The position numbers and the translations under genes were made by a program. 64,000 bases of DNA from an uncultured Verrucomicrobiae bacterium (GTDB lineage Bacteria > Verrucomicrobiota > Verrucomicrobiia > Chthoniobacterales > UBA10450), in the NCBI GenBank assembly GCA_963800015.1, contig CAWCZE010000001.1, positions 5,111 through 69,110 on the forward strand, in the 5' to 3' direction. The first letter of the stretch is position 1, and each line of letters opens with the position of its first letter. Of this stretch, positions 158-36,507 are shown one piece after another. A model generated the notes under the pieces. The model worked only from the letters and a program-made list of their open reading frames with translations. It searched no databases and was not told the origin of the DNA.

Positions 158-246
158 CGCAGACTATTCCACGCGATGAATACCCTTTATGCAAGTGGGA
201 ACGCGTTCGCAACCGTCCAAATCTCGGACCGCTCGCAAGTTCGCAA

Positions 247-283
247 ACCAAAAAAATTTGCGGCAGCCCGTTGGGACTGCCGC
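247..283 (-). terminator. rho-independent terminator closing the minus-strand accessory block
   Basis: GC hairpin GCGGCAG(CCCGTTGGGA)CTGCCGC at 260-283. On the minus strand it is followed by a run of 7 T (A-run at 250-256 on plus). Confidence 0.55.
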
Positions 284-418
284 AAAAGCTTTCGGTAGGA
301 ATCGATCAATTACCGGCCGCCATTATTCGTGGTCGTTTCCGGTATCGTTAAGCAGATCATCTTTTTTGCCTAGCGAATTCATCGACTTGCGTGATGTTCC
401 AGGCTCGCGGGTTGTCGG

Positions 419-742
419 CTATATTGGTGGTCGCTCCGTTCGTAGCTTGAACCCGGCGCCATAGTGGTCTTTTTGGCCGGTTCCCTTGGCCGGTTCAGTT
501 CCGGTCATTTCGCCGCGGTTCTTATGACTTTGATTCTGAGTGGTTTTCTTCTTCGTCTTGGCCGACGTGGCGATGTCGTTATTCGCGTTGGTGTCGTTCG
601 TCGCCGAAACAGAGGTTGAATTGTCCCTCTGGTTACTCCCGCCGCCGGTTCCCGTCTCAGTTCGCGCCTGGGCGAACGCGAGGGTCGGGAGCGCCAAACC
701 TGCTGCCAAAATTACAGCTAAGATTGTTTTCCCCTTCATCAT
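419..742 (-). CDS. small secreted low-complexity protein (signal peptide; N/T/K-rich)
   Basis: Part of ORF 419..853. The likely start is MMKGKTILAVILAAGLALPTLAFAQA at 742, preceded by AAGGAA. No recognisable domain. Confidence 0.45.
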   Translation of the reverse strand: MMKGKTILAVILAAGLALPTLAFAQARTETGTGGGSNQRDNSTSVSATNDTNANNDIATSAKTKKKTTQNQSHKNRGEMTGTEPAKGTGQKDHYGAGFKLRTERPPI

Positions 743-963
743 GTTGTGTTCCTTCTTGTTATTGTTTTGGTTCGTAGTTGTCCGGCTGATACGCGACCGT
801 TTCTCAACTCTTGAGATATAAGTTGTGACTCCGGACCCCTGACGAGCGTTCAAACCTGCGACGTCAGCAAAATTCTGATTCGAGGAACGGAATCAGTCTC
901 AGGTGTGGTTAGAAAAGAAAAATGAAAAGCAGGCGAGAAGACGCTTGTGTTGCGCCGGCGGGG

Positions 964-1626
964 TCAACGAAAGAAACGTGGTAATACCACACCAAGAAAA
1001 TCGCTAAGGCCGTGGCCGATCATGTTTGCCACAAGATCGCGACGCCAAACATAGAATACTGTCGCGATCGTCCCAAGCACCAACGCAATGATGATATTCG
1101 GGACACCGCCAGTCCAATGGATGCCAGCAAAAATCGCGAGCGGAATTGCCGCAGAAACAACGCGGCCACAACCAATTGCCTCGAGCCGTTCGATCGCGTA
1201 ACCGCGGAAAAATAGTTCCTCGACATGATCCCCGCTCGAATGACCATCAGGGTTTTGAGCCATATCGGAATTTTGTTGAACTGGCTGAGCCAGGGCCACG
1301 ACCGTATCCGGTGAACTGGATACCATCATGAGCAGCGACTTTACAAACGCCGGCGAGAATGCATTCCATACCGAAGGGATTGGCGCCACGGCACGACGCC
1401 GAGACGAATCGAGCTTAATGGCAGCCGTTCGCCGAAACGAATCACCACGATCAGCAAGCAGCCATGGAGTGATACGGGCGACTTCTCTCCAGGCATTAGC
1501 TGAAGTTGTATCTGGCACACGAAGGGCGCGGGACCCGAATCGCAGAACGAGGAACCCGAAAAGGGCGATAAAAAGACCCACCCACGTGAATGGAGAAATT
1601 CTCGAGCGCATCGATTTAGGCGACAC
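964..1626 (-). CDS. CPBP family intramembrane metalloprotease (CAAX protease-like)
   Basis: Intact 220-aa ORF with an EELFFRGY motif and a downstream H-containing TM helix (FAGIHW...). The ATG lies 32 nt downstream of the attC R' core at 1658. Confidence 0.7.
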   Translation of the reverse strand: MSPKSMRSRISPFTWVGLFIALFGFLVLRFGSRALRVPDTTSANAWREVARITPWLLADRGDSFRRTAAIKLDSSRRRAVAPIPSVWNAFSPAFVKSLLMMVSSSPDTVVALAQPVQQNSDMAQNPDGHSSGDHVEELFFRGYAIERLEAIGCGRVVSAAIPLAIFAGIHWTGGVPNIIIALVLGTIATVFYVWRRDLVANMIGHGLSDFLGVVLPRFFR

Positions 1627-1657
1627 TAGCCATTCACTGGAAAGGCCATAATCTTCG

Positions 1658-1783
1658 GGCTAACGAGAACAGAGATGAGCGAGGGCGGTCGAGCGCATGC
1701 GTCGATCGAAGTAGAAATGTGGAAACTATGTTCAAAACCGAAGCATACGCCGGCACCTCGTTCGCTCCATCGCATGGTCAGGC
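1658..1783 (-). repeat. attC recombination site 1 (about 126 bp)
   Basis: Minus-strand reading: GCCTGAC-CATGCGATGGAGCGAACGAGG...CCCTCGCTCATCTCTGTTCTC-GTTAGCC. It begins 3 nt after the TAA of ORF 1787..1978. Confidence 0.75.
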
Positions 1784-1786
1784 GCT

Positions 1787-1978
1787 TTACCTCGCACGCA
1801 CGATATTCTTGGCTAGCGTCTTGAATCTCAGTCCATCTCTCTGCGTCACGGTAATCGTCACATGACCAGTCTTGCTAATCTTCGTATCGCTGACGATACC
1901 CGATTTTCCGGTATGAGTGCCGCCCGTGACTTTGCACTTGGCACCGTCTTTGATGTTGCTTTGTAAGTTCGTTTTCAT
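1787..1978 (-). CDS. small KOW-like hypothetical protein (63 aa)
   Basis: Part of ORF 1787..2020. The likely start is MKTNLQSNIKDGAKCKVTGGTHTGKSGIV... at 1978, and the stop abuts attC 1. Confidence 0.45.
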   Translation of the reverse strand: MKTNLQSNIKDGAKCKVTGGTHTGKSGIVSDTKISKTGHVTITVTQRDGLRFKTLAKNIVRAR

Positions 1979-2029
1979 GTGGTTTGAACATTCGCCGCTA
2001 ACGAGATACAACATCAGCAACGGCGCGAG

Positions 2030-2438
2030 TTACAACACATATCGCTGAGCCAGCCAAGAGAAGATGGCGCCGAACAGAATGAATTGAACGACCACGTATC
2101 CAGCGTCGATCGCTGCTAGCGTCAGAGTGCGCCCGGCGAACAGATAGGCGATAACATGGATGGAGTAACCCAAGCCAGACCGATGGCCGCGCCTGTGCCA
2201 AGCGCTGCGCGAAGACCCGGCCTCGGACCCACAAACGCGCCGAATACCACAGCCGCTACTAAGTCAGGGTGATCGCCAGTCCAAATAGCGTTGACCGCGC
2301 AACCCGTGGTTTGAAGTCGCGGCCGACTCCCATTTCGCGCATCCACGGTTTACTGAACAGTGGACCGTACCAAAGGCCGCCGAGGATGAAGGCCGTAACA
2401 GTCGAGACAATAACGGCAATCCAACTTATTTGAGGCAT
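2030..2438 (-). pseudogene. DUF1761-family membrane protein, spread over three frames as assembled
   Basis: The N-terminus from the ATG at 2438 is MPQISWIAVIVSTVTAFILGGLWYGPLFSKPWMREMG. The middle is in the frame of ORF 2122..2346. The C-terminus HVIAYLFAGRTLTLAAIDAGYVVVQFILFGAIFSWLAQRYVL ends at the TAA at 2030. Confidence 0.5.
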
Positions 2439-2505
2439 AATTTCGTCACGCTTGTTGGTTGAGGTTCTGCGCTCGGCTGAAAATCCGCCCTCATTGGGAC
2501 CGTGA

Positions 2506-3496
2506 TTAACTGGACGTGTATTCGTCAGCTAGCCCGTTCGCGTTAGTGCAGGATTTCAAATGCTCAAAGCTGACGAGTTGGCGCGTCGTTTGATCCCAAA
2601 GTTTCAGCTTCGCGCAAGCAAGACTCGTCCTGAGGGTGATTGTCGGCGCCTTGGCAAACGCAGGATGGGCAGCATGGCAGAGCTCCAAATTATAATTGGG
2701 AATTCCAGGGCTAAGATGATGGATGTGATGGAAGCCAATACTACCTGAAAACCACTGCAGTATTTTCGGTAGTCGATAAAACGAACTTCCGTGGAGCGCT
2801 GCCGCGCAATAGCTCCACTCCTCCGACGGTGTCCAATAAGCGTTCTCAAATTGATGCTGGATATAGAACAACCAGATTCCAATGCCGCCCCCGACTATGG
2901 TAATCAGCAGTTGGGTAATTAGAAATTCTCGCCATCCGAAAACCACACTCAGTGTCACCCATAGGCCCAATACCCAAAGGTTTGTCATCCAGACCGACCA
3001 GACCGACCGGCGAGGAGCGGTGCGGCCTGGGACGCGGTGTAAACAAAGAAAAACGAATAAAGGGGCAATCGAGAACAGAACGACCGGATTGCGTGTAATC
3101 GCGTACACACAACGGCGCCACCGCGGTGAACTTAAATATTCCTCGACTGTCATCGTCCAAACATCGCCAATCCCACGCCGACCGAGGTCCCCTGAAGTGT
3201 TGTGGTGGACGGCATGTTCCCACCGCCAATGGTAGAAGGGCATGAAAACCATCAGGCCCGCAACGGTGCCGATAATGTCGTTCGCAACTTTGGATTGTGT
3301 GAAAGATCCATGACCGCAGTCATGCATAATAATGAAGACACGAATGACCCAAAGACCGGCAAGAAGTGTAAGACAAAGAGCTAGACGTACGAAAATCTCC
3401 ACTCCAATAAATGGCGCCCCATAACAACACATACATCGCCATACTATTAGCGACCTGGATCGCGGCGCGCCAAGCAGAGCGTTTCTGGAACTGCAT
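2506..3496 (-). CDS. membrane fatty acid desaturase (three His boxes); N-terminus frame-disrupted
   Basis: ORF 2506..3432 carries HDCGH, HWRWEHAVHH and HHIHH. Upstream, another frame reads MQFQKRSAWRAAIQVANSMAMYVLLWGA, the typical desaturase N-terminus. This implies an indel near 3415-3425. Confidence 0.85.
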
Positions 3497-4154
3497 TACA
3501 CGGGCTTTAGCTCTGTTAGAGGAGGTAGTGGACCTACTTTGTCAGGTTGCGGTGCGCTAGCAGAGTTTGGAGACATATGCGGCCGATCCCGTGTCAGTCG
3601 GCTGGTGAATAGTTGAGATCGCGTTAGGGCGTCGCAACGAACCGCAGTCCCTCAGAACTTTCGCCGGCCCGAAGATGCGCTGAAACTTGGGCAGCCTAAT
3701 CGGATCCGATACTCAATTCGAGGTTTTTATGTGTAGGCCTCTACCTCACCGGAGGCCTTAGCATATATACAATCGATGCCGGTGAACGCTAATCGACCAG
3801 CCGGTGATCGTCTCAACGTCTGCTCGCCGAATCTTTGCGTCTTCGGCGAACGCTGCTGATGAGCGAGGTTGTGGTACCCGGTCAGCTGGCAACGCTGGAA
3901 GCTCAAGTGAAATCGGAAGCGATGAGAAGGCGTGTCACCATGTAAAAGATGGAGATAAGCCGCGGGCGGGGTCACTAGCAAAGACGCTGAAGTTTTTCGC
4001 AATGGGCCGTTGGTTATATCGATTGGTTAAAGGTTAAGGCCATGACATCCCGTGCACGAGAAGGCCAGAATATTAGACTCAGCTCGCAAGAAATATAAAT
4101 CGCAAATCGCTTTCTCACAAAGCGCAGGAAGATCGCCGTTCTCGATGCGCAACC

Positions 4155-4705
4155 TACTCCATCACGTTCCTCACCACAATCTTGTAGTCGAGTGACCCTG
4201 CAAGCCGTTCAAATTGCTCCCGCCCTTTGACGTTTGGACCTCCTAGCAGAACCCAATCAAGGCCAATGCGCCCATGTTCAACGGAAAATTGGACGTTGAC
4301 CGCGTTATCGTCAGTGAGTGGAACTCCGGCAGGTGTAAAGACAAAGCTGCGAAGCTATTGTCTTTGCCTGTGCTTTTGCACGAGTAAAAACGGCCGGAAT
4401 ATCCTTCACGGTAATTTCAAACTCGGTCAGCCCTGCGTAAGCGGCTGCGATCCTAGCGGAATCGTAGCCATATTGCTTACGTAAACATCTGACCGATACG
4501 ATCGGACAAAACTGACTCCACCCCGGTGAGTAATCGAGAGTCCGTAAACTGATGCACCCGTCACAGTTGCCTCGTCAAAACGCTCCCCACTAACTGTGGT
4601 GATCGTACCAGGCTCTTCGGATCGCGCGATGATAACCGTCGACAACGCAAGTAGTAACAGAGATACCAACAATTTCATTCTGGAGCCGTGTAGCGTTTCT
4701 GCCAT
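4155..4705 (-). CDS. hypothetical exported protein(s), fragmented over several frames
   Basis: ORF 4427..4705 has a signal peptide (MKLLVSLLLLALSTVIIA). Downstream segments in other frames (YGYDSARIAAAYAGLTEFEITVKDIPAVF..., ...DNAVNVQFSVEHGRIGLDWVLLGGPNVKGREQFERL) end near 4155. Confidence 0.3.
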
Positions 4706-4825
4706 CTAACGAAAATAAGCTGAGCGACCGCTGACGAGAGCGAGCCGTGTTTTGCGTTTAAGTATTGAAGTCATCGAAAGTAAATTTATCGCCGGTCAGC
4801 GGTTCGCTCCATCGCATGCTTAGGC
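4704..4825 (-). repeat. attC recombination site 2 (about 122 bp)
   Basis: Minus-strand reading: GCCTAAG-CATGCGATGGAGCGAACCGCTGACCGGCG...GTCAGCGGTCGCTCAGCTTATTTTC-GTTAGAT. It begins 9 nt after the stop at 4835. The R' core overlaps the ATG at 4705. Confidence 0.75.
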
Positions 4826-4834
4826 CTCTCACAG

Positions 4835-5429
4835 TTAAAACCCAAGTTTCGGAAACACTTCGAACACCGCGATTACCTGCACAACAAGAATGATGATCGC
4901 CATAAAAGTATGGATGCGGATGTTTACGGACCGGATACCGATCAGGCAGGCCGGTATCGCCGGGGCCCCATATATGAATGCCCCGATACCGTTGCCCTGG
5001 ATATATGGCCAGCCTCCCTTCAGCCACGCGTCGACAATGTCCGCGAACGTCGCGATCAAATAGAGAGGATAGAACCATTGTCGCTTGGACAAAAAGTATC
5101 TCATCCAAGTCCTCGATCGTAGCCCATTCGCGCGGAAGCAGGAGCACGGCGAGGAGAAAGAGAATAACGGCATAACTAATGATGAAAAAATAATGCAGCA
5201 GAGTCCAGCTCTTCAGGAGCGCCAGAAGTCGAAATTCCCACCCCCAGAAAGATACCATCCAAATAAACAGGATTAGTAGCCAGGTAGCGTGCGGCCAGCT
5301 CAGGCGCAGGCGCGCTCCATGTCCGGTAATGCGCTCGATGGCCGAGCCTACCCCGATGAGGATATAGGTGATGCCAAGACCGATAATGATCGACGTAAGC
5401 ACCATCACATGCTGGAACTGATCGTTCAT
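4835..5429 (-). CDS. multi-pass membrane protein of unknown function (one frame change needed near 5095)
   Basis: The N-terminal half comes from ORF 4758..5429. The C-terminal half comes from ORF 4835..5173 (...YFLSKRQWFYPLYLIATFADIVDAWLKGGWPYIQ...). Both halves are hydrophobic. Confidence 0.55.
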
Positions 5430-5765
5430 TGGAGTGCTTTAGGTGCTAACGAATTCATATCCAGGGAACACGCCGTGGCGCGCGATTATCTTTTTCCTCC
5501 AGTTGCGCGGCCCTTTGGCGGCGCGAGTTCGGTGAACTTGATACGCATGCGGAGGTGGCGCGGATGTAGAGTTTTTTCATGAACATTTGAAGTTATCGCC
5601 GAAACAAATGCGATTCACGTCGCAACGCTTATTCCAAGATCGAAAGTCGTGCGATTGAAATCATCTTCGAACTCGCCTGGTCGCCGGCTGTTCTGGTGTC
5701 GATAGTGAGCTCTGACCCCGCTTTGCTGCCCCAAACTTACTCTGCGCTGTCAACGATATTCTTGG

Positions 5766-5831
5766 GTCTAACGAGAACAAGATAAGCCACTCCGAAAGCT
5801 TTCGCGAGTTGGCTTCATGGTTTGGTTAGAT
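5766..5831 (-). repeat. attC recombination site 3 (short, about 66 bp)
   Basis: Minus-strand reading: ATCTAAC-CAAACCATGAAGCCAACTCGCGAAAGCTTTCGGAGTGGCTTATCTTGTTCTC-GTTAGAC. The stem AAGCCAACTCG/CGAG-TGGCTT has one bulged base. Confidence 0.7.
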
Positions 5832-5919
5832 CTTTGGCGGCGGCGGAGGCAGACAACCGTTTTGTCTCTAATTCGTTTGTCCAACGCAAGACTCTGGGGA
5901 CGCGATTATGACATCGTGA

Positions 5920-6153
5920 CTATTGCCGGACACTGATCACCCACGTTGGGTGGTTTCCTACCCTCCTAGCATGCTCATTCCCTTGTTGCTGCGCCTTCAT
6001 CACCGCTTGAGGGTCGTTAGCACTGAACTTCGATCCTTTCCAACCGCAGCTACAAACAGCTTGAAAAGCGGCGCCATTGGCATTGATAGCAATTATGGCA
6101 ATGACGCACAAAACGACAGTCAGGAAAAGGATGAGTATAGATCGATGTTTCAT
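5920..6153 (-). CDS. small membrane-anchored hypothetical protein (77 aa)
   Basis: Intact ORF with an N-terminal TM helix: MKHRSILILFLTVVLCVIAIIAINA. It lies between attC 4 and attC 3. Confidence 0.45.
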   Translation of the reverse strand: MKHRSILILFLTVVLCVIAIIAINANGAAFQAVCSCGWKGSKFSANDPQAVMKAQQQGNEHARRVGNHPTWVISVRQ

Positions 6154-6260
6154 AAAATTAGGTTGCCTTCTTTTGAATGATTCACCTTAACATGAAATGC
6201 TCCGGTTCGGTTGATACCTTCGACCTGACGATTCAGTTGATGGCGAGGCGTACAGCATAG

Positions 6261-6465
6261 ACCTAACGAAAACAAGCTGAGCGACCGCTACCATCGAAGA
6301 CATCACGGCCGGAGTGCGTGGCGCCGAAGACGCGAATCGCACTAGGGAAGCCGGGGACTTGGATGGAATCCAAGCGGTAGCGTGCGGTGCATTAAGTTTC
6401 AGTATCGAAGTCATCAAAAGTAAATTTTCTGCCGGTCAGCGGTTCGCTCCAGCGCTTGGTTAGAT
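6261..6465 (-). repeat. attC recombination site 4 (long, about 205 bp; paralogue of site 2)
   Basis: Minus-strand reading: ATCTAAC-CAAGCGCTGGAGCGAACCGCTGACCGGCAG...GGTAGCGGTCGCTCAGCTTGTTTTC-GTTAGGT. It begins 13 nt after the stop at 6478. Confidence 0.7.
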
Positions 6466-6477
6466 GCGGTCGAATTG

Positions 6478-6943
6478 CTATTGAATTGGTTGAAGCAAAG
6501 TCTCCTGCTCCGCGACTAAGACCCATTTGTCGCTCCGGCGGACATAAACGTGAGTATCGGCCGTCTTGCCTATGAAAGGCTTGCCATCCGCATGCTTGCC
6601 CGTGTCGATGATGCGACACGTAACACAGCGGCATCGCCGTAGATGCGTATTACCGGATCCTCGATTTGCGTGTGCGTGTCAATGTCTCCGCTGACTTGAC
6701 TCAGGGCCACAGCTTGAGCAAATCGGTATTATTTCGACGCTCACCCTTGAATGACCAAAACTGAAAATCGTCTCCGATGATCGCGTTCAACGTTACAATG
6801 TCATTCTTCTGCCACGCTTCGATCATCGCGTGGTGTAGCCGAAGAATCTCTTGCTCATCCCGTGAGTTATCAGCCGCAAGCACCGTCGCCGTAACAACCG
6901 TGGTGACGACAAGCAGGATCAACAATGTGGTAAGTCTTAGCAT
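6478..6943 (-). pseudogene. SnoaL/DUF4440-like (NTF2 fold) exported protein, three frames as assembled
   Basis: ORF 6701..6943 reads MLRLTTLLILLVVTTVVTATVLAADNSRDEQEILRLHHAMIEAWQKND... It continues in other frames as ...IEDPVIRIYGDAAVL... and ...GKPFIGKTADTHVYVRRSDKWVLVAEQETLLQPIQ, with the stop at 6478. Confidence 0.55.
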
Positions 6944-7062
6944 CTAACGAGAACAAGCTGGGCCGCCCCGACCCAAGCGGGCTCTGCTAAGAACTTCAAT
7001 CTTCTATCTTCCATCTGCTCATTCGTCTGCGGCCAGCCGTTCGCTGCATCGCCTGGTCAGAC
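6942..7062 (-). repeat. attC recombination site 5 (about 121 bp)
   Basis: Minus-strand reading: GTCTGAC-CAGGCGATGCAGCGAACGGCTGGCCGCAG...GGCGGCCCAGCTTGTTCTC-GTTAGAT. It abuts the stop at 7063, and the R' core overlaps the ATG at 6943. Confidence 0.75.
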
Positions 7063-7601
7063 TCATTGGCCAGCGGCTGTTTGCGCAGGCCGTAGTGACG
7101 GCCTCTCGTCCATCACTTGAAAGCTGTCGGTCAGCCATTTGCCGTCTCGCTTCAGCATGAGTCGAAAGACGTGTGATACCCGGTTGCCCTCAGGCGTCCC
7201 GTCGGCCTTGAGCTGATCGATGGTGTCTTGCCGCGTGTGAACTAACGCTATGTCCGGACGAATGAACCTGATCAACCGAAAGAGCAAGGGAAGCTGTTTT
7301 CGGTGTCGCATCCCCCCCGGGCGCAGCAAAAATGCGGGTCACAAATTTCTCGATTTTCTTCCTTTCCCTCCTTTTCGATTCCATACGCATTGATCCAATA
7401 GGCGCCAGGGGTGTATCCGCCATCGTGTGTGCCACATCGAACTTGCCCCAGCCCTCGTCCACGGCGTCCGTCACCACTTTCTGAATCGCAGCCACGTCCT
7501 CCGCGCTGTGCTCCCTTCTATTTTGGGCTCCGCATTTTGAGCGGATGCGAGAAGCGGAACCATCGCGACAGTAAAGCTGCCACAGTTGGGTCGTGTTTCA
7601 T
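7063..7601 (-). pseudogene. SgcJ/EcaC-like NTF2-fold protein (second SnoaL-like cassette), frame-disrupted
   Basis: Fragments are AEDVAAIQKVVTDAVDEGWGKFDVAHTMADT... (ORF 7190..7495) and ...IRFIRPDIALVHTRQDTIDQLKADGTPEGNRVSHVFRLMLKRDGKWLTDSFQVMD (ORF 7063..7329). The candidate ATG at 7601 lies 45 nt from attC 6. Confidence 0.5.
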
Positions 7602-7645
7602 TTCGAGAATGTAAGTAAAAGAGAGCCCCCGCGCTATTGTTTTGA

Positions 7646-7766
7646 GCCTAACGAGACCACGATGAGCGACGGCCACCGAAAGCGAGGATGGCTCAAATGA
7701 AAGTGATTTAATCATCTGAAATGTGAACACGCACGGCTGGCCGTTGGCTCCATCGCATGGTTAGGC
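7646..7766 (-). repeat. attC recombination site 6 (about 121 bp, best match to the canonical cores)
   Basis: Minus-strand reading: GCCTAAC-CATGCGATGGAGCCAACGGCCAGCCG...GGTGGCCGTCGCTCATCGTGGTCTC-GTTAGGC. It begins 1 nt after the stop at 7768. Confidence 0.8.
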
Positions 7767-7767
7767 G

Positions 7768-8160
7768 TCAGTGGGGCCATCCCGCGATAATAGCAACTAG
7801 ACCCAAGCCCGTAAACACGATCATCCCGCCGAGCCACGCCCAGGGTTGCGGCGCTGAAAACGGAAAACTGCGAGAGGGAGAACTGTTGTCGTAATACACG
7901 GGAATAGCGCCGCCGATCTGGCGAGAAGGAACTCCAGGAACGCCCCACATGCGACCGATGCCAGTGCCGGCATATTCGACGCCGGCGACGGAATACCTGT
8001 AAGCCACGCGTATCGAATCCGCGCTCGACTCACCAGCGGGAACGCCGGGGCCAGTGTCGGTGATGACTCCGGGCGTCCGCACGAAGAGGAATGGATTGCT
8101 CGGACGTAGCCGAACGATCAGACGCTGATTGCCAATACGATGCACGACGGCCCGAACCAT
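7768..8160 (-). CDS. DUF3592-like membrane protein
   Basis: 130-aa ORF with a beta-rich core (...RVAYRYSVAGVEYAGTG...IPVYYDNSSP...) and a C-terminal TM helix WAWLGGMIVFTGLGLVAIIAGW. The N-terminal TM may be lost to a frame change upstream. Confidence 0.55.
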   Translation of the reverse strand: MVRAVVHRIGNQRLIVRLRPSNPFLFVRTPGVITDTGPGVPAGESSADSIRVAYRYSVAGVEYAGTGIGRMWGVPGVPSRQIGGAIPVYYDNSSPSRSFPFSAPQPWAWLGGMIVFTGLGLVAIIAGWPH

Positions 8161-8484
8161 AAACTGTCACGCTTCCGCAGCGACATGCGTTTAGCTTAAC
8201 ATCACAACAGCGAGGAAGGACATCCAAATGGCAGACGCTTACATTGAACCAAAGCCCACCGTCCGACATGAGCATGACGCCATTGATCACTATGTGATCG
8301 AGCACGCAAACGGCGCAAAAATAGCGGGCCATAAAAACCACAAGGAGAGGCGATCCAAGCTGCAAGGCAAGCGGGCACCATCCGCTTGTCGCTCGCGTCC
8401 GTGGCACTGATAAGGGAAACGCTGATCATTTGCGGTCGTCGGAACGACAATCCGAGCCGAGGGATTGCTGAACATAAAAGGCGA

Positions 8485-9453
8485 TTAGGCGCCGAAGACT
8501 TCGAGAAAGGCGACTTCGAAGGCGAGCGCTTCCTGAATATTGCGGCCAAGATTGTCGCGCAGTTCCTCCAGCCGCTGAATTCGCCGCAATACAGCCGGAA
8601 CACCAAAACGTTCGGCAAGTGTCGCGGTTTCTTTTTTCGCCATCGGCAGATTGTGTTCTGGACTCCGGTGCAGCGCGAAGAACGTCCGACCAAAATTCGA
8701 CAAGAACTTCAATCAGCATCGCGCGGCGTTGGATGTAGAGACTTTCCGTCAGCGCCTTGTAATATTCCCTCCGGTCTTCCAGCCATGCGCCGTCGGTCGC
8801 ATTGCGATATCGTGCTTCTTCATTTTCCAAAGCCTGATCGTTTTCGGCTTTGATCTTTTGCTTAATACGATTCAGCAAGCTCTGCATTCCCTGTTGCAAT
8901 CGATAAGCCTGCTGAAGTCCCCAACTCTTGTCGCGGGCAGCGCCGCGAAGGAGCTCGACCAGCTCGCTTCGTTCCGGAATTTCAATCTCTTCTCCATTCG
9001 GCGTCAGGGGAATGCAAATACAACGCGACACGATTGTGTCCGGCAACGCTTCAGGTAAAGAGCTCAACAACAGCAGCAGCGAATTGCTTGGCGGCTCCTC
9101 CAGGGTTTTGAGAAACGCGTTTGCGGCCTGGGGTTGCAAACGATCGGCTTCGGCAATGATTGCCACCTTGCGCTGTCCTTCCTGCGAGCGCATTTGCAAT
9201 CCGTGTTCGAGCTCGCGGATTTGCTCGATCAATATTCGGCGCGACTTCGATTCGGGCTCGGCGACGAAAATTTCGCGGGCCTTGGAGGAAAATACGTCGC
9301 GGCTTCGGTTCCGTTCACAACACTGGCAAGATTCGCCGCGACTTCGCGTTTGCCGCTTCCAACCGGACCGGAAATCAAATAGGCGTGGCCGAGCCGATTA
9401 TTTTCGTGGGCACGCCGCAGGAGTCCGATCGCAGTTTTTTTCGAGAAAGCCAT
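8485..9453 (-). CDS. holB: DNA polymerase III subunit delta' (frame-disrupted at about 9290 and about 8700)
   Basis: The sequence reads MAFSKKTAIGLLRRAHENNRLGHAYLISGPVGSGKREVAANLA..., then ...ILIEQIRELEHGLQMRSQEGQRKVAIIAEADRLQPQAANAFLKTLEEPP...SRC. The C-terminus comes from ORF 8485..8712. Confidence 0.8.
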
Positions 9454-9517
9454 TTCAGATGTTTGATGTTCGAGGTTCGATGTTCGAATGTCGCGCGAGC
9501 TTCGGGAAATCCCCTGA

Positions 9518-10148
<631 letters not shown>

Positions 10149-34659: not shown

Positions 34660-36507
34660 ATGCGCGATTTGAAAATCTTGGTAACGGTCTTCGCATTGTT
34701 CGCGGCCACTTCGGCTGCGAACGGAGCATCGCCGAGCGTGACCGCCGTGCTGAGCAATTCGGAGCCTCAAGTCGGCGAAACCGTGCAGCTCGAGATCAAA
34801 GTCACCGGCGCTCAAAGCGCCAATGTGCCGCAGGAGATATCGATCGACGGCCTGGAAATTCATCAGACCGGGACGTCGCGCCAATTCGAAATGCACAATT
34901 TCGATGTGAAAAGCAGCGTCAATTACAACTACACAATTCTGCCGTTACGCGCCGGACGATTTAAAATTCCAGCTCAAACCATTCGGATTGGAAGCGAATC
35001 GCTGCACACCCCGGAACTCGCACTCAATGTAGCAGGTGGCTCGAGCAACTCGGCTGGAGCGCCTCGAACCAATCAATCGGCCACCAACGTTAGCAAACTT
35101 GCGTTCGCTGAATTGGTGATCCCAAAAAAGGACGCATATGTCGGCGAAATGATACCAGCCGTGATTCGGCTGGGGTTTGACGCTCGGGCCCGTGGACAGC
35201 TCCAGGAAGGACCGGAACTTTCCGGTCAAGGTTTTACGACTCAAAAATTGCAGCAACCGAACGAAACTTTGGAAACAATCGGGGGCCGGCCTTGTAAAGT
35301 TTATACGTTCAAAACGGCGATCTCGCCCGCGCGAGCCGGAAAATTCGAGATCGGACCGGTGAAAGCCAAAGCAATGCTGCTGCTGCCGAGACGGCCAAGC
35401 GCGCCGCGCACCACCCGGCCGCGTTCGCCATTCGACCTCTTTAATTTAGACGATCCATTCTCCGATCCATTTTTCGCCGACCCTTTTGGCAGCATGGGCG
35501 AGCGAACGGAGTTACCGATCAAAAGCGAATCGGTGATGCTGGACGTCAAACCGTTGCCTCCCAACGCGCCTCCAGAGTTCTCGGGAGCAATCGGCAGCTT
35601 CACCATGACTGTCGATGCGAAACCGAAAAAGGTGCAGGCGGGCGACCCAATCACTGTGACCGCGACAATTTCGGGACGCGGCAATTTCGATCGAATGAAC
35701 GCACCGGTCCTGACGGACGAACACGGCTGGCACAAATATCCCCCGTCGTCGAAATTTAAACAGGACGACGATGTTGGATTTAGCGGCGAGAAAACTTTCG
35801 AGACGGTCATCGCGCCTAACGAGAAGAAGACGGCGCTGCCGCCGCTGGCATTCGCTTATTTCGATCCGATCAAAGAAAACTACGTCACATTGCGAAGCGA
35901 CGCGATTCCCATCGAGGTTGAAGGAGGCGCTGCGGCCGCTCCAACGGCTGCCGCCCCTGCCGCGTCAGCAAAAACGACGGCGAGCGCGGCTCCGACTCCC
36001 GCGCCCGCGGCAAAACCGGCCGACATCTTGTATCAGCTTACTGATCTTGGATCGGCTCGCTCGTTTGTTCCGCTTTACATGCGACCCGTATTTTGGATTT
36101 CGCAGCTCGCTCCCCTCATTGGGCTTTTACTTTTTGCCGGCTGGAAAATTCGTAAGGCAAGAATGGGCAACCGCGAGGCGATGAGAATCGCGGCATTGCA
36201 ACACGAGTCCGCGGAGCTGTTGCGTAAACTGCGCCGCGATCGCCTCTCGCCACAGGAATATTTCTCAAATGCGTCGCGGGTGGCCCGCGTCAAGACGGCG
36301 CTGGCGAAGAATCTCGACCCGAACGCGGTCGACGCGACAACGATCGAGAAAACTTTTGATCTGAACGAGACCGACCGAACCCGGCTCCGGACGTTATTCG
36401 AGCGGACTGACGAGTTGCGTTACAGCGGGAGCGGCAATGGCGACAACAAAGTCCCGGATCAGGATCGCGAGAAAGTTTTGGAATTGCTCGAAAGTTTGCA
36501 CGCATGA
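34660..36507 (+). CDS. batD: BatD (oxygen tolerance) protein
   Basis: Part of ORF 34633..36507, with a signal peptide from MRDLKILVTVFALFAATSAANGA. The repeated beta domains, an Ala/Pro linker, a TM helix and a cytoplasmic tail are typical of BatD. Confidence 0.8.
   Translation: MRDLKILVTVFALFAATSAANGASPSVTAVLSNSEPQVGETVQLEIKVTGAQSANVPQEISIDGLEIHQTGTSRQFEMHNFDVKSSVNYNYTILPLRAGRFKIPAQTIRIGSESLHTPELALNVAGGSSNSAGAPRTNQSATNVSKLAFAELVIPKKDAYVGEMIPAVIRLGFDARARGQLQEGPELSGQGFTTQKLQQPNETLETIGGRPCKVYTFKTAISPARAGKFEIGPVKAKAMLLLPRRPSAPRTTRPRSPFDLFNLDDPFSDPFFADPFGSMGERTELPIKSESVMLDVKPLPPNAPPEFSGAIGSFTMTVDAKPKKVQAGDPITVTATISGRGNFDRMNAPVLTDEHGWHKYPPSSKFKQDDDVGFSGEKTFETVIAPNEKKTALPPLAFAYFDPIKENYVTLRSDAIPIEVEGGAAAAPTAAAPAASAKTTASAAPTPAPAAKPADILYQLTDLGSARSFVPLYMRPVFWISQLAPLIGLLLFAGWKIRKARMGNREAMRIAALQHESAELLRKLRRDRLSPQEYFSNASRVARVKTALAKNLDPNAVDATTIEKTFDLNETDRTRLRTLFERTDELRYSGSGNGDNKVPDQDREKVLELLESLHA

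Follow-up and report, generated by a model that had tools for sequence, protein, structure and literature searches.

The question raised by this locus is whether the small genes between fabG and holB in a 64,000-nt stretch of DNA from an uncultured Verrucomicrobiae bacterium (contig CAWCZE010000001.1, positions 5,111 to 69,110; the whole stretch is referred to as the window) form an integron cassette array and, if so, of what kind. An earlier interpretation of the same DNA, made without database searches (the sequence-only reading), described six imperfect palindromes following minus-strand open reading frames (ORFs) and took them for attC sites of an array without an integrase. The results described here support this interpretation: with a probability of about 86%, positions 1658 to 8200 of the window represent an integron gene-cassette array lacking an integrase, that is, a CALIN (a cluster of attC sites that has no integron integrase). 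The support comes from the geometry of the predicted folds, from covariation between paired positions, from the recognition of class 1 integron attC sites by a model of this family, and from the linkage of the family to integron integrases in other genomes.

Six related imperfect palindromes (sites A to F; Table 1), all on the plus strand and with uniform polarity, were found by reading and aligning the sequence, at the positions given in the sequence-only reading, and two covariance models bear them out. The first, R1, was built from the six window sites, and the second, R2, was built from 75 sites of other genomes (alignment A3) and included no window sequence. When the 64 kb were scanned with R1 on both strands with filters off, the six sites scored 60 to 126 bits, and the next best match was a weak one on the same strand at 3937-4035. 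R2 recovered sites A, B, C, E, and F at 44 to 103 bits and covered just the 3' part of site D (16 bits) because of an insert of ~80-110 nt in this site. Reverse-strand scores did not exceed 17 bits across both models (13 bits for R2), and, with filters off, neither model detected an attC copy outside positions 1655-7769 of the window. Thus, the six sites are clear, but a degenerate seventh site, G, which corresponds to the weak match, had been overlooked. The 3' arm of site G is retained (GGCCGTTGGTTATATCGATTGGTTAAAG), its R' box has decayed to TGTAAA, and the stretch 3952-4029 is 84% identical to the attC region of a locus from another genome (L048). Site B is 84-87% identical to sites of L048 and of another such locus, L020.

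On the plus strand, the consensus of the sites is YCTAAC-GAGAACAA-GMTGAGCGACSGC ... GSCGTTCGCTCCATC-GCATG-GTTAGRY, and 0 matches to the 25-26 nt arm consensus sequences are expected in shuffled sequence. The individual core sequences had been quoted correctly, and CTAAC is present at the plus-strand 5' end of all six sites, as part of an exact RYYYAAC box in five of them, the sixth being GGCTAAC of site A. However, the GTTRRRY-type ends that had been attributed to all sites are exact only in C, D, and F; the R'' boxes of A and E (GTCAG) and of B (CTTAG) have one mismatch each. Likewise, the proposed location of the sites 1-13 nt past a stop codon holds for five of the six, which start 0-12 nt past a minus-strand stop, but not for site C, which starts 88 nt past the stop codon of the ORF 5920-6153. 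The central part of the sites ranges from ~10 nt to ~150 nt (sites C and D, respectively). The lengths of A, B, C, E, and F (66-126 nt) fall within the 57-141 bp range known for attC, and site D, with 205 nt, is outside it. Long forms of 186-202 nt were also found in other genomes, and the extra segment of site D (6262-6372) shows 78-81% identity to attC segments of four other loci (L037, L029, L008, and L051). Because of this similarity, the long-form sites (186-205 nt), as judged from sequence, appear to be a recurring subfamily rather than a one-off insertion.

The folding energies of single sites as DNA are of limited value: for four of the six sites, they are no better than those of shuffled sequence, although the fold of site C has a z-score of -3.4 and that of site F pairs its two arms. 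Site E is partly eroded, with ~12 broken pairs and many non-canonical pairs in the R2 alignment. Thermodynamic stability alone is not diagnostic of attC; covariation and geometry are. An Rfam scan of the window returned three tRNAs only, and Rfam does not include an attC family. Several further candidates, raised by eye or by half-site hidden Markov models, were rejected. A match to the R'-spacer consensus at 35811-35830 (CCTAACGAGAAGAAG) lies within a 624-aa ORF, lacks the 3' arm, and was judged to be due to chance, and putative extra sites at 837-915, 2468-2551, and 3620-3650 have no significant model match.

In attC sites, the bottom strand has an R' box of the form RYYYAAC and an R'' box of the form GTTRRRY, spacers of 5-6 nt, and a length of 57-141 bp (Nivina, 2016; PMC5027507). 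Opposite the AAC triplet, it carries extrahelical bases, usually a G at position 16 and a conserved T at position 23 or 24, with a 6-bp stem between them (PMC5027507). The RNAalifold consensus of the 75 other-genome sites, obtained with no structure supplied, shows, starting from the 3' end, a 6-bp R box and an unpaired spacer, then 3 bp followed by a bulged C, 6 bp followed by a bulged T, and a further stem. The sequence-only reading had suggested looking for extrahelical bases and an unpaired central spacer, and both are present in this consensus. The conserved bulges, counted from the 3' end, are a C at position 16 (74 of 75 sites) and a T at position 23 (74 of 75), separated by 6 bp, and a third bulged base further in is a G in 67 of the 75. 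All three are on the R''-L'' arm, opposite the AAC triplet. The proposed asymmetry of the arms, with extra bases confined to one of them, is therefore real, but it involves three bulges rather than 1-2. In the 75 sites, conservation of the CTAAC columns reaches at least 98%; the R-box pairs of the family are 98-100% paired, and its spacer spans 8-9 nt in the 5' arm and 5 nt in the 3' arm, compared with the usual 5-6 nt. Because the unpaired extra bases are all on the 3' arm and the small ORFs are on the minus strand, the plus strand of the window corresponds to the attC bottom strand. The same bulge positions are found in the aadA2 attC of a class 1 integron (L205, 5412-5471), which has G16 and T23. 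The window family departs from the attC definition in the C at position 16, the 8-9 nt spacer of the 5' arm, and some 186-205 nt forms.

The predicted pairing is also reflected in sequence evolution. In an alignment of 150 family members, 94.8% of the cells at paired positions were paired, compared to 23-39% when the partners were slid by 1-3 columns. Compensatory, two-sided changes were observed in 15 of the 23 pairs, and none of 500 shuffles attained the observed values.

The relationship of this family to known attC sites was addressed with class 1 integrons. IntI1 loci were collected from PLSDB plasmids, using an IntI1 seed sequence 100% identical to the annotated plasmid proteins; nine class 1 loci were taken, attC sites were read from the annotated cassettes of four, and six loci (90 kb) were scanned with R2 (filters off). 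The top 11 matches were all at known attC positions, namely those of aadA2 (38.9 bits, E = 5.5e-9), aadA16, aacA4 (three matches), aadB, blaVIM-2, aac(6')-29a, aac(6')-29b, and arr-3 (two matches). With respect to intI1, all these matches were on the bottom strand, and the bulge columns of R2 aligned with T23 and G16 of aadA2. The attC of dfrA27 was the sole known site missed by R2 in the scanned loci. Given that a model built exclusively from the verrucomicrobial family ranks class 1 attC sites on top, R2 recognizes canonical attC sites.

The family is not confined to this window. One genome per GTDB species was scanned for a degenerate 24-nt pattern of the 3' arm, which yielded at least 118 stretches. 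Nearly all of the matches listed come from Verrucomicrobiota metagenome-assembled genomes (MAGs) of Chthoniobacterales, Udaeobacter, 'Spartobacteria', and Limisphaerales, with a few labelled as other phyla. R1 matched over 400 sites in the listed loci, where single arrays have as many as 12 within 8 kb. Of the 39 listed loci with more than one exact match to the pattern, none has copies on both strands, and the median spacing is 674 nt. Altogether, the family is large and homogeneous, with a length of ~123 nt from R' to R'' (~129 nt for the model matches, which include short flanks). The pattern is also present in MAGs labelled as Planctomycetota, Acidobacteriota, Cyanobacteria, Nitrospira, Limnocylindria, and even 'Klebsiella' (L003, L008, L011, L032, L043, L066, L072, L105, L112, and L113 are among such loci); these copies could reflect cassette exchange between phyla or mis-binned contigs. 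In addition, 14 viral-class contigs of IMG/VR (L208-L221) carry the pattern, with 50 sites detected by R2 and co-oriented arrays of up to 11 sites (L216 and L220). Such contigs might carry cassettes on phage genomes, represent host DNA flanking prophages, or have been misclassified.

When all ORFs of the 118 listed loci were searched with IntI1 using phmmer, and NCBIfam TIGR02249 was applied with its cut-off of 265 bits, integron integrases scoring 384-489 bits were identified in five loci (L028, L039, L093, L105, and L075), beside arrays of this family. Full or partial IntI matches were obtained in 11 loci, and each of these 11 has its integrase at the R''-proximal flank of the array, as predicted from attC polarity and as seen for intI1 in the class 1 loci. 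Eight of the integrases are divergent from the cassettes, and three are co-oriented with them. The co-oriented cases (L093, 3165-4421; L031, 139-678; L117, 4505-5114) are on the expected side of the array.

In the window itself, no integrase was found, in agreement with the earlier claim that no tyrosine recombinase is encoded in the 64 kb. A phmmer search with IntI1 gave no match among the window stop-to-stop ORFs of at least 100 aa, and a tblastn search of the 64 kb with five verrucomicrobial IntI proteins gave a best E value of 0.079 and no IntI fragment even at E = 10. From the polarity of the sites, intI would be expected to the right of ~8200, but the features found there are a lone GTTAAGC core, a small reversed ORF, holB, and tmk, and altogether ~56 kb to the right of the array lack a recombinase, whereas ~1.6 kb are visible to the left. 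The definition of a CALIN calls for two or more attC sites on the same strand, each under 4 kb from the next, and for the lack of intI and, within 10 kb, of intI pseudogenes (Cury, 2016; PMC4889954). The window contains six significant sites and one weak site on the plus strand, with a largest gap of 2921 nt between A and B, or of 2156 nt when site G is counted, and no intI in the 64 kb. The features of a complete integron, i.e., intI, attI, and a cassette promoter (Pc) beside the first cassette, are absent. Of the two possibilities that the sequence-only reading had left open, the CALIN is therefore favored over the distal part of a sedentary chromosomal integron; the predicted side has holB and tmk but no recombinase in 56 kb, and in related contigs holB and fabG are neighbours, with neither attC nor intI. 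As a class, such an array is ordinary: CALINs are common, with 279 reported in a 2016 survey (Cury, 2016; PMC4889954) and 2961 in RefSeq according to a later one, and Verrucomicrobia are already among the phyla known to bear integrons (Cury, 2016; PMC4889954).

The position of the array in the genome was defined by comparison with relatives. An in-frame holB fragment retrieved 80 related soil-metagenome loci (L119-L198; 67-88% amino-acid identity), and in about 24 of these, fabG (78-95% identical to the fabG fragment of the window) begins 41-546 nt past the holB stop codon. In comparison with the closest relatives, L131 and L122, homology ends at window position 8434 and resumes at 202, with 35 nt between these points in the relatives. 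Based on these junctions and on the adjacency of holB and fabG in other loci, the region 204-8433 is an insertion of ~8.2 kb between adjacent, co-oriented housekeeping genes. The locus is probably chromosomal, in what is probably a soil Verrucomicrobiota. No attC site was found among the 80 loci, nor in the five with holB-fabG gaps of 2-7 kb that were rescanned with filters off, and no IntI was found in any of the 80. A marginal attC match in L155 is inside an ordinary ORF and was rejected; the 7.3 kb gap of this locus holds genes of ordinary size. The distance between holB and fabG varies among the relatives, from 41 nt up to 7.3 kb, and the spacer seems to act as a hot spot of variable insertions; attC cassettes are present there only in the window. 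A conserved array position was also considered on account of L052, where two attC sites are ~4.4 kb from holB, but pyrG and kdsB are located between them and holB, so that the junction is a different one. This two-site cluster (1232-1913, MFD00822.bin.1.1) is between a tsaC/sua5-like gene and pyrG, and holB-tmk is intact there.

The coordinates of all features are compiled in Table 1, in which the cassette units were cut between AA and C of each R' box.

Table 1. Predicted attC sites, cassettes, and other features of the region between holB and fabG (window coordinates; R1 and R2, covariance models).
Feature	Position	Strand	Description
Inserted block	204-8433		~8.2 kb; lies between the stop of holB (8485) and the start of fabG (157)
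attC site A	1658-1783	+	last of the array; R' GGCTAAC, R'' GTCAGGC; R1 101.6 bits, R2 67.7 bits
attC site B	4704-4825	+	R' ATCTAAC, R'' CTTAGGC; R1 125.6 bits, R2 102.5 bits
attC site C	5766-5831	+	short form, 66 nt; R' GTCTAAC, R'' GTTAGAT; R1 60.6 bits, R2 59.0 bits
attC site D	6261-6465	+	long form, 205 nt, ~80-110 nt extra in the variable terminal structure; R1 115 bits
attC site E	6942-7062	+	R' ATCTAAC, R'' GTCAGAC; R1 96 bits, R2 43.7 bits
attC site F	7646-7766	+	ends cassette 1; R' GCCTAAC, R'' GTTAGGC; R1 116.1 bits, R2 100.5 bits
Degenerate attC site G	3940-4032	+	R2 18.9 bits, E 0.002 (match 3937-4035); R1 13.5 bits
Lone core GCTTAAC (GTTAAGC on the cassette strand)	8194-8200	+	33 nt before the ATG of the first cassette; upstream array boundary
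Possible attC remnant of the DUF1761 cassette	1997-2035	+	R'-L' arm-like GCTAACGAGATACAACATCAGCAACGGCG, then GTTACAA; not significant
Cassette 1	7652-8199	-	ORF 7768-8160; DUF3592, Pfam PF12158, E 7.9e-07
Cassette 2	6948-7651	-	ORF 7063-7614, frameshifted; no Pfam match
Cassette 3	6267-6947	-	ORF 6478-6943, frameshifted, DUF4440/SnoaL-like; stitched translation PF14534, E 2.9e-09
Cassette 4	5772-6266	-	ORF 5920-6153, 77 aa, hydrophobic N-terminus; no Pfam match
Cassette 5	4710-5771	-	ORF 4835-5429, frameshifted, multi-pass membrane protein; no Pfam match
Cassette 6	~3946-4709	-	ORF 4154-4705, frameshifted, putative secreted protein; no Pfam match
Composite cassette 7	1664-3945		2.3 kb; desaturase, DUF1761, and KOW-like ORF; no internal attC detected
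Fatty-acid desaturase gene	2506-3432	-	in cassette 7; PF00487, E 2e-29
DUF1761 gene	2030-2438	-	in cassette 7; PF08570; two frameshifts
Small KOW-like ORF	1787-2020	-	final ORF ahead of site A; Pfam KOW match under the cut-off, 20.5 bits
CPBP/Rce1-like intramembrane protease gene	964-1626	-	PF02517, E 6.5e-13; no attC follows
Secreted-protein gene	419-853		no attC follows; weak homologue at the same place in L167
Small reversed ORF	8228-8470	+	between the array and holB; frameshifted; Pfam match below threshold only

The ORFs of the array are all small and on the minus strand. The DUF1761 gene is 79% identical at the nucleotide level to positions 1755-2151 of a locus from another genome (L061), where it is flanked by attC sites at 1615-1743 and 2198-2327. 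The possible remnant of such a site in the window is 72% identical to the 5' arm of site A, with a half-site hidden Markov model E value of 0.21. For the lone core at the upstream boundary, no attC or attI partner was detected, and neither the covariance models nor the half-site model gave a match there. In contrast to what had been assumed, the array does not abut fabG, because the CPBP protease and secreted-protein genes, both without attC, lie between site A and fabG. Neither model detected an attC match in positions 1-1650, and the CPBP gene is absent from the related holB-fabG loci. Altogether, the inserted block includes three genes without attC, these two and the small reversed ORF. The tblastx matches of cassette genes to holB loci were spurious short high-scoring segment pairs, with the exception of the weak secreted-protein homologue. 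Between the secreted-protein gene and fabG, at 286-257 on the minus strand, there is a strong terminator-like hairpin with a 13-bp stem (8 G-C pairs) followed by T7.

Most cassette ORFs are frameshifted, as are holB and tmk (8485-10127), which, like the DUF1761 gene, have at least two frame changes each relative to intact homologues. Since the essential genes holB and tmk are broken too, the frameshifts probably represent errors of an indel-rich, error-prone assembly rather than pseudogenes. The erosion of sites G, E, and A and the absence of attC sites between the KOW-like, DUF1761, and desaturase genes suggest decay without turnover by an integrase, an interpretation that is weakened by the poor quality of the sequence.

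The integron integrase binds the folded bottom-strand hairpin of attC, and its cut falls between A and C within the AAC triplet. When two attC sites recombine, the cassette is released as a circle, which can re-enter at attI or at a secondary genomic site. In the window, the plus (bottom) strand of each attC would fold into an imperfect hairpin in which R' (YCTAAC) pairs with R'' (GTTAG), followed by an unpaired central spacer and by an L-box stem with the bulged C and T on the R''-L'' arm. Each cassette comprises a small, apparently promoterless minus-strand ORF and its attC. Because the cassettes share the direction of tmk and holB, they are probably expressed by read-through from the tmk-holB operon, rather than from a Pc, with transcription ending at the terminator at 286-257. 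Without IntI provided in trans, whether encoded elsewhere in the genome or brought by an incoming element, the array would be static, because no integrase is encoded within 56 kb on the side predicted by the polarity.

Several observations weigh against the interpretation of the array as a CALIN, or against parts of it. Three of the six R'' boxes deviate from GTTRRRY, site D is longer than the usual 57-141 nt, the first bulge is a C and not the usual G, and the spacer of the 5' arm is 8-9 nt rather than 5-6 nt. Membership in the attC class is assigned through cross-recognition of class 1 sites by R2, which serves as a surrogate. Because part of the inserted block consists of genes without attC, the whole 8.2 kb need not have been delivered by an integrase. 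The read-through is deduced from gene orientation only, and scans for promoters and terminators yielded no more than those of shuffled controls. Indels are frequent, so that the erosion of sites and ORFs may be partly an artefact. Finally, the visible genome amounts to 64 kb, and a rearranged or split integron with intI elsewhere would look alike.

This last point leads to the first of the alternatives, namely that the array is a distal or split-off part of a sedentary chromosomal integron, the intI-attI platform of which was moved elsewhere by rearrangement and the integrase of which still services the cassettes. Long (~123 nt), homogeneous attC sites are typical of sedentary chromosomal integrons, relatives have 10-12 or more sites per 8 kb, some beside IntI, and sites B, F, and C look intact; moreover, about half of the CALINs are in replicons that also encode IntI (Cury, 2016; PMC4889954). 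However, holB, tmk, and 56 kb without a recombinase occupy the predicted side, the array is part of an insertion separating two genes that adjoin each other in relatives, all of which lack intI at this place, and several sites are eroded or missing. We therefore consider a split-off integron improbable, and even such an array would still be a CALIN by the 4 kb (or 10 kb) rule of IntegronFinder. Far less plausible still is that the palindromes are generic repetitive extragenic palindromic (REP)-like elements or transcription terminators that resemble attC by chance. They are indeed intergenic imperfect palindromes downstream of ORFs, and their folding energies are mostly unremarkable, but the scattered copies that the sequence-only reading had named as the mark of a REP are missing from the other 56 kb, and copies of mixed orientation are missing from the 39 multi-copy loci listed. 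Combined with the conserved asymmetric bulges at canonical positions, the adjacency of the family to TIGR02249 integrases, and the retrieval of class 1 attC sites by the family model, these observations refute this explanation for practical purposes.

For the origin of the CALIN, three routes can be weighed. The cassettes, or a circle with multiple cassettes, could have been inserted at a genomic site other than attI by an integrase acting in trans, to which we assign somewhat less than even odds. Block transfer or rearrangement is possible but rather doubtful. In the remaining scenario, which concerns the origin only, a complete integron was once located beside holB, and a later deletion of intI and attI left only the cassettes. 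Loss of the integrase is among the classical explanations for CALINs (Cury, 2016; PMC4889954), the lone GTTAAGC core at 8194-8200 could be the residue of an attI crossover, and the eroded sites fit an old, inactive array. On the other hand, no IntI fragment is detectable in the window, only ~235 nt separate the first cassette from the holB flank and these are filled by an unrelated small ORF, 0 of the 80 related holB loci have intI or attC at this place, and intI pseudogenes are near only 5% of CALINs (Cury, 2016; PMC4889954). Because of the bare upstream core, the lack of an intI fragment, and the empty sites in relatives, all of which fit insertion outside attI, loss in place is unlikely. 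The more detailed scenario that combines trans insertion at the bare GTT core past tmk-holB, expression by read-through, and slow erosion on what is now a platform free of Pc and integrase, i.e., natural capture of cassettes outside an integron platform, is offered as a tentative one.

Comparison with known systems places the array within the range of CALINs (Cury, 2016; PMC4889954), with which it shares two or more attC sites of one orientation at distances below 4 kb, the absence of intI and of intI pseudogenes within 10 kb, and cassettes of unknown or non-resistance function; its 6-7 sites compare with a mean of ~5 in that survey. There is no essential difference, except that the insertion between adjacent housekeeping genes is shown for the window and that a probable soil Verrucomicrobiota, not a Proteobacterium, hosts the array. 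The Vibrio cholerae repeats (VCRs; ~120-130 nt) resemble the window family (~123 nt), whose sequence is kept over hundreds of cassettes and many genomes, in being long and homogeneous and in forming large, strictly co-oriented arrays, some of them beside IntI, and VCR2 has three bulged bases, as does the window family (PMC5027507). In contrast to the VCRs, the window family belongs to Verrucomicrobiota, shows no sequence kinship beyond the core, and has a C as the first bulge and an 8-9 nt spacer on the 5' arm, and the window array lacks an integrase. The attC sites of class 1 cassettes (aadA2, aadB, aacA4, blaVIM-2, and others) have the same core boxes, spacer, and bulges at positions 16 and 23 with 6 bp between them, and R2 aligns with them bulge for bulge; they differ in their length of 60-110 nt, short terminal loops, and low sequence conservation, and in their association with resistance genes beside intI1 on plasmids and transposons. 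The closest parallel to the proposed origin is the insertion of cassettes at attG sites by IntI acting in trans (Loot, bioRxiv 10.1101/2022.09.11.507474). Like these insertions, the window array is outside attI, downstream of and co-oriented with a host operon, and its upstream junction consists of a bare core that contains GTT, beyond which host sequence follows. The published cases are, however, experimental single insertions in E. coli, together with statistics on single attC sites lacking an integron integrase (SALINs) and small CALINs, whereas the window contains 6-7 cassettes in addition to genes without attC, and its mechanism is inferred.

Taken together, these results leave the current understanding of integrons unchanged, and the importance of the array is modest: it is a well-delimited CALIN from a poorly studied, probable soil lineage of Verrucomicrobiota, with cassettes mostly without known function. 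Because the empty holB-fabG site has been kept in many relatives, the locus could serve as a natural test case for the origin of CALINs by trans insertion versus loss of the integrase. The very homogeneous ~123 nt attC family with a C as the first bulge occurs widely in Chthoniobacterales-type genomes and is linked to their integrases, and it could help in assigning soil-metagenome cassettes to this lineage.

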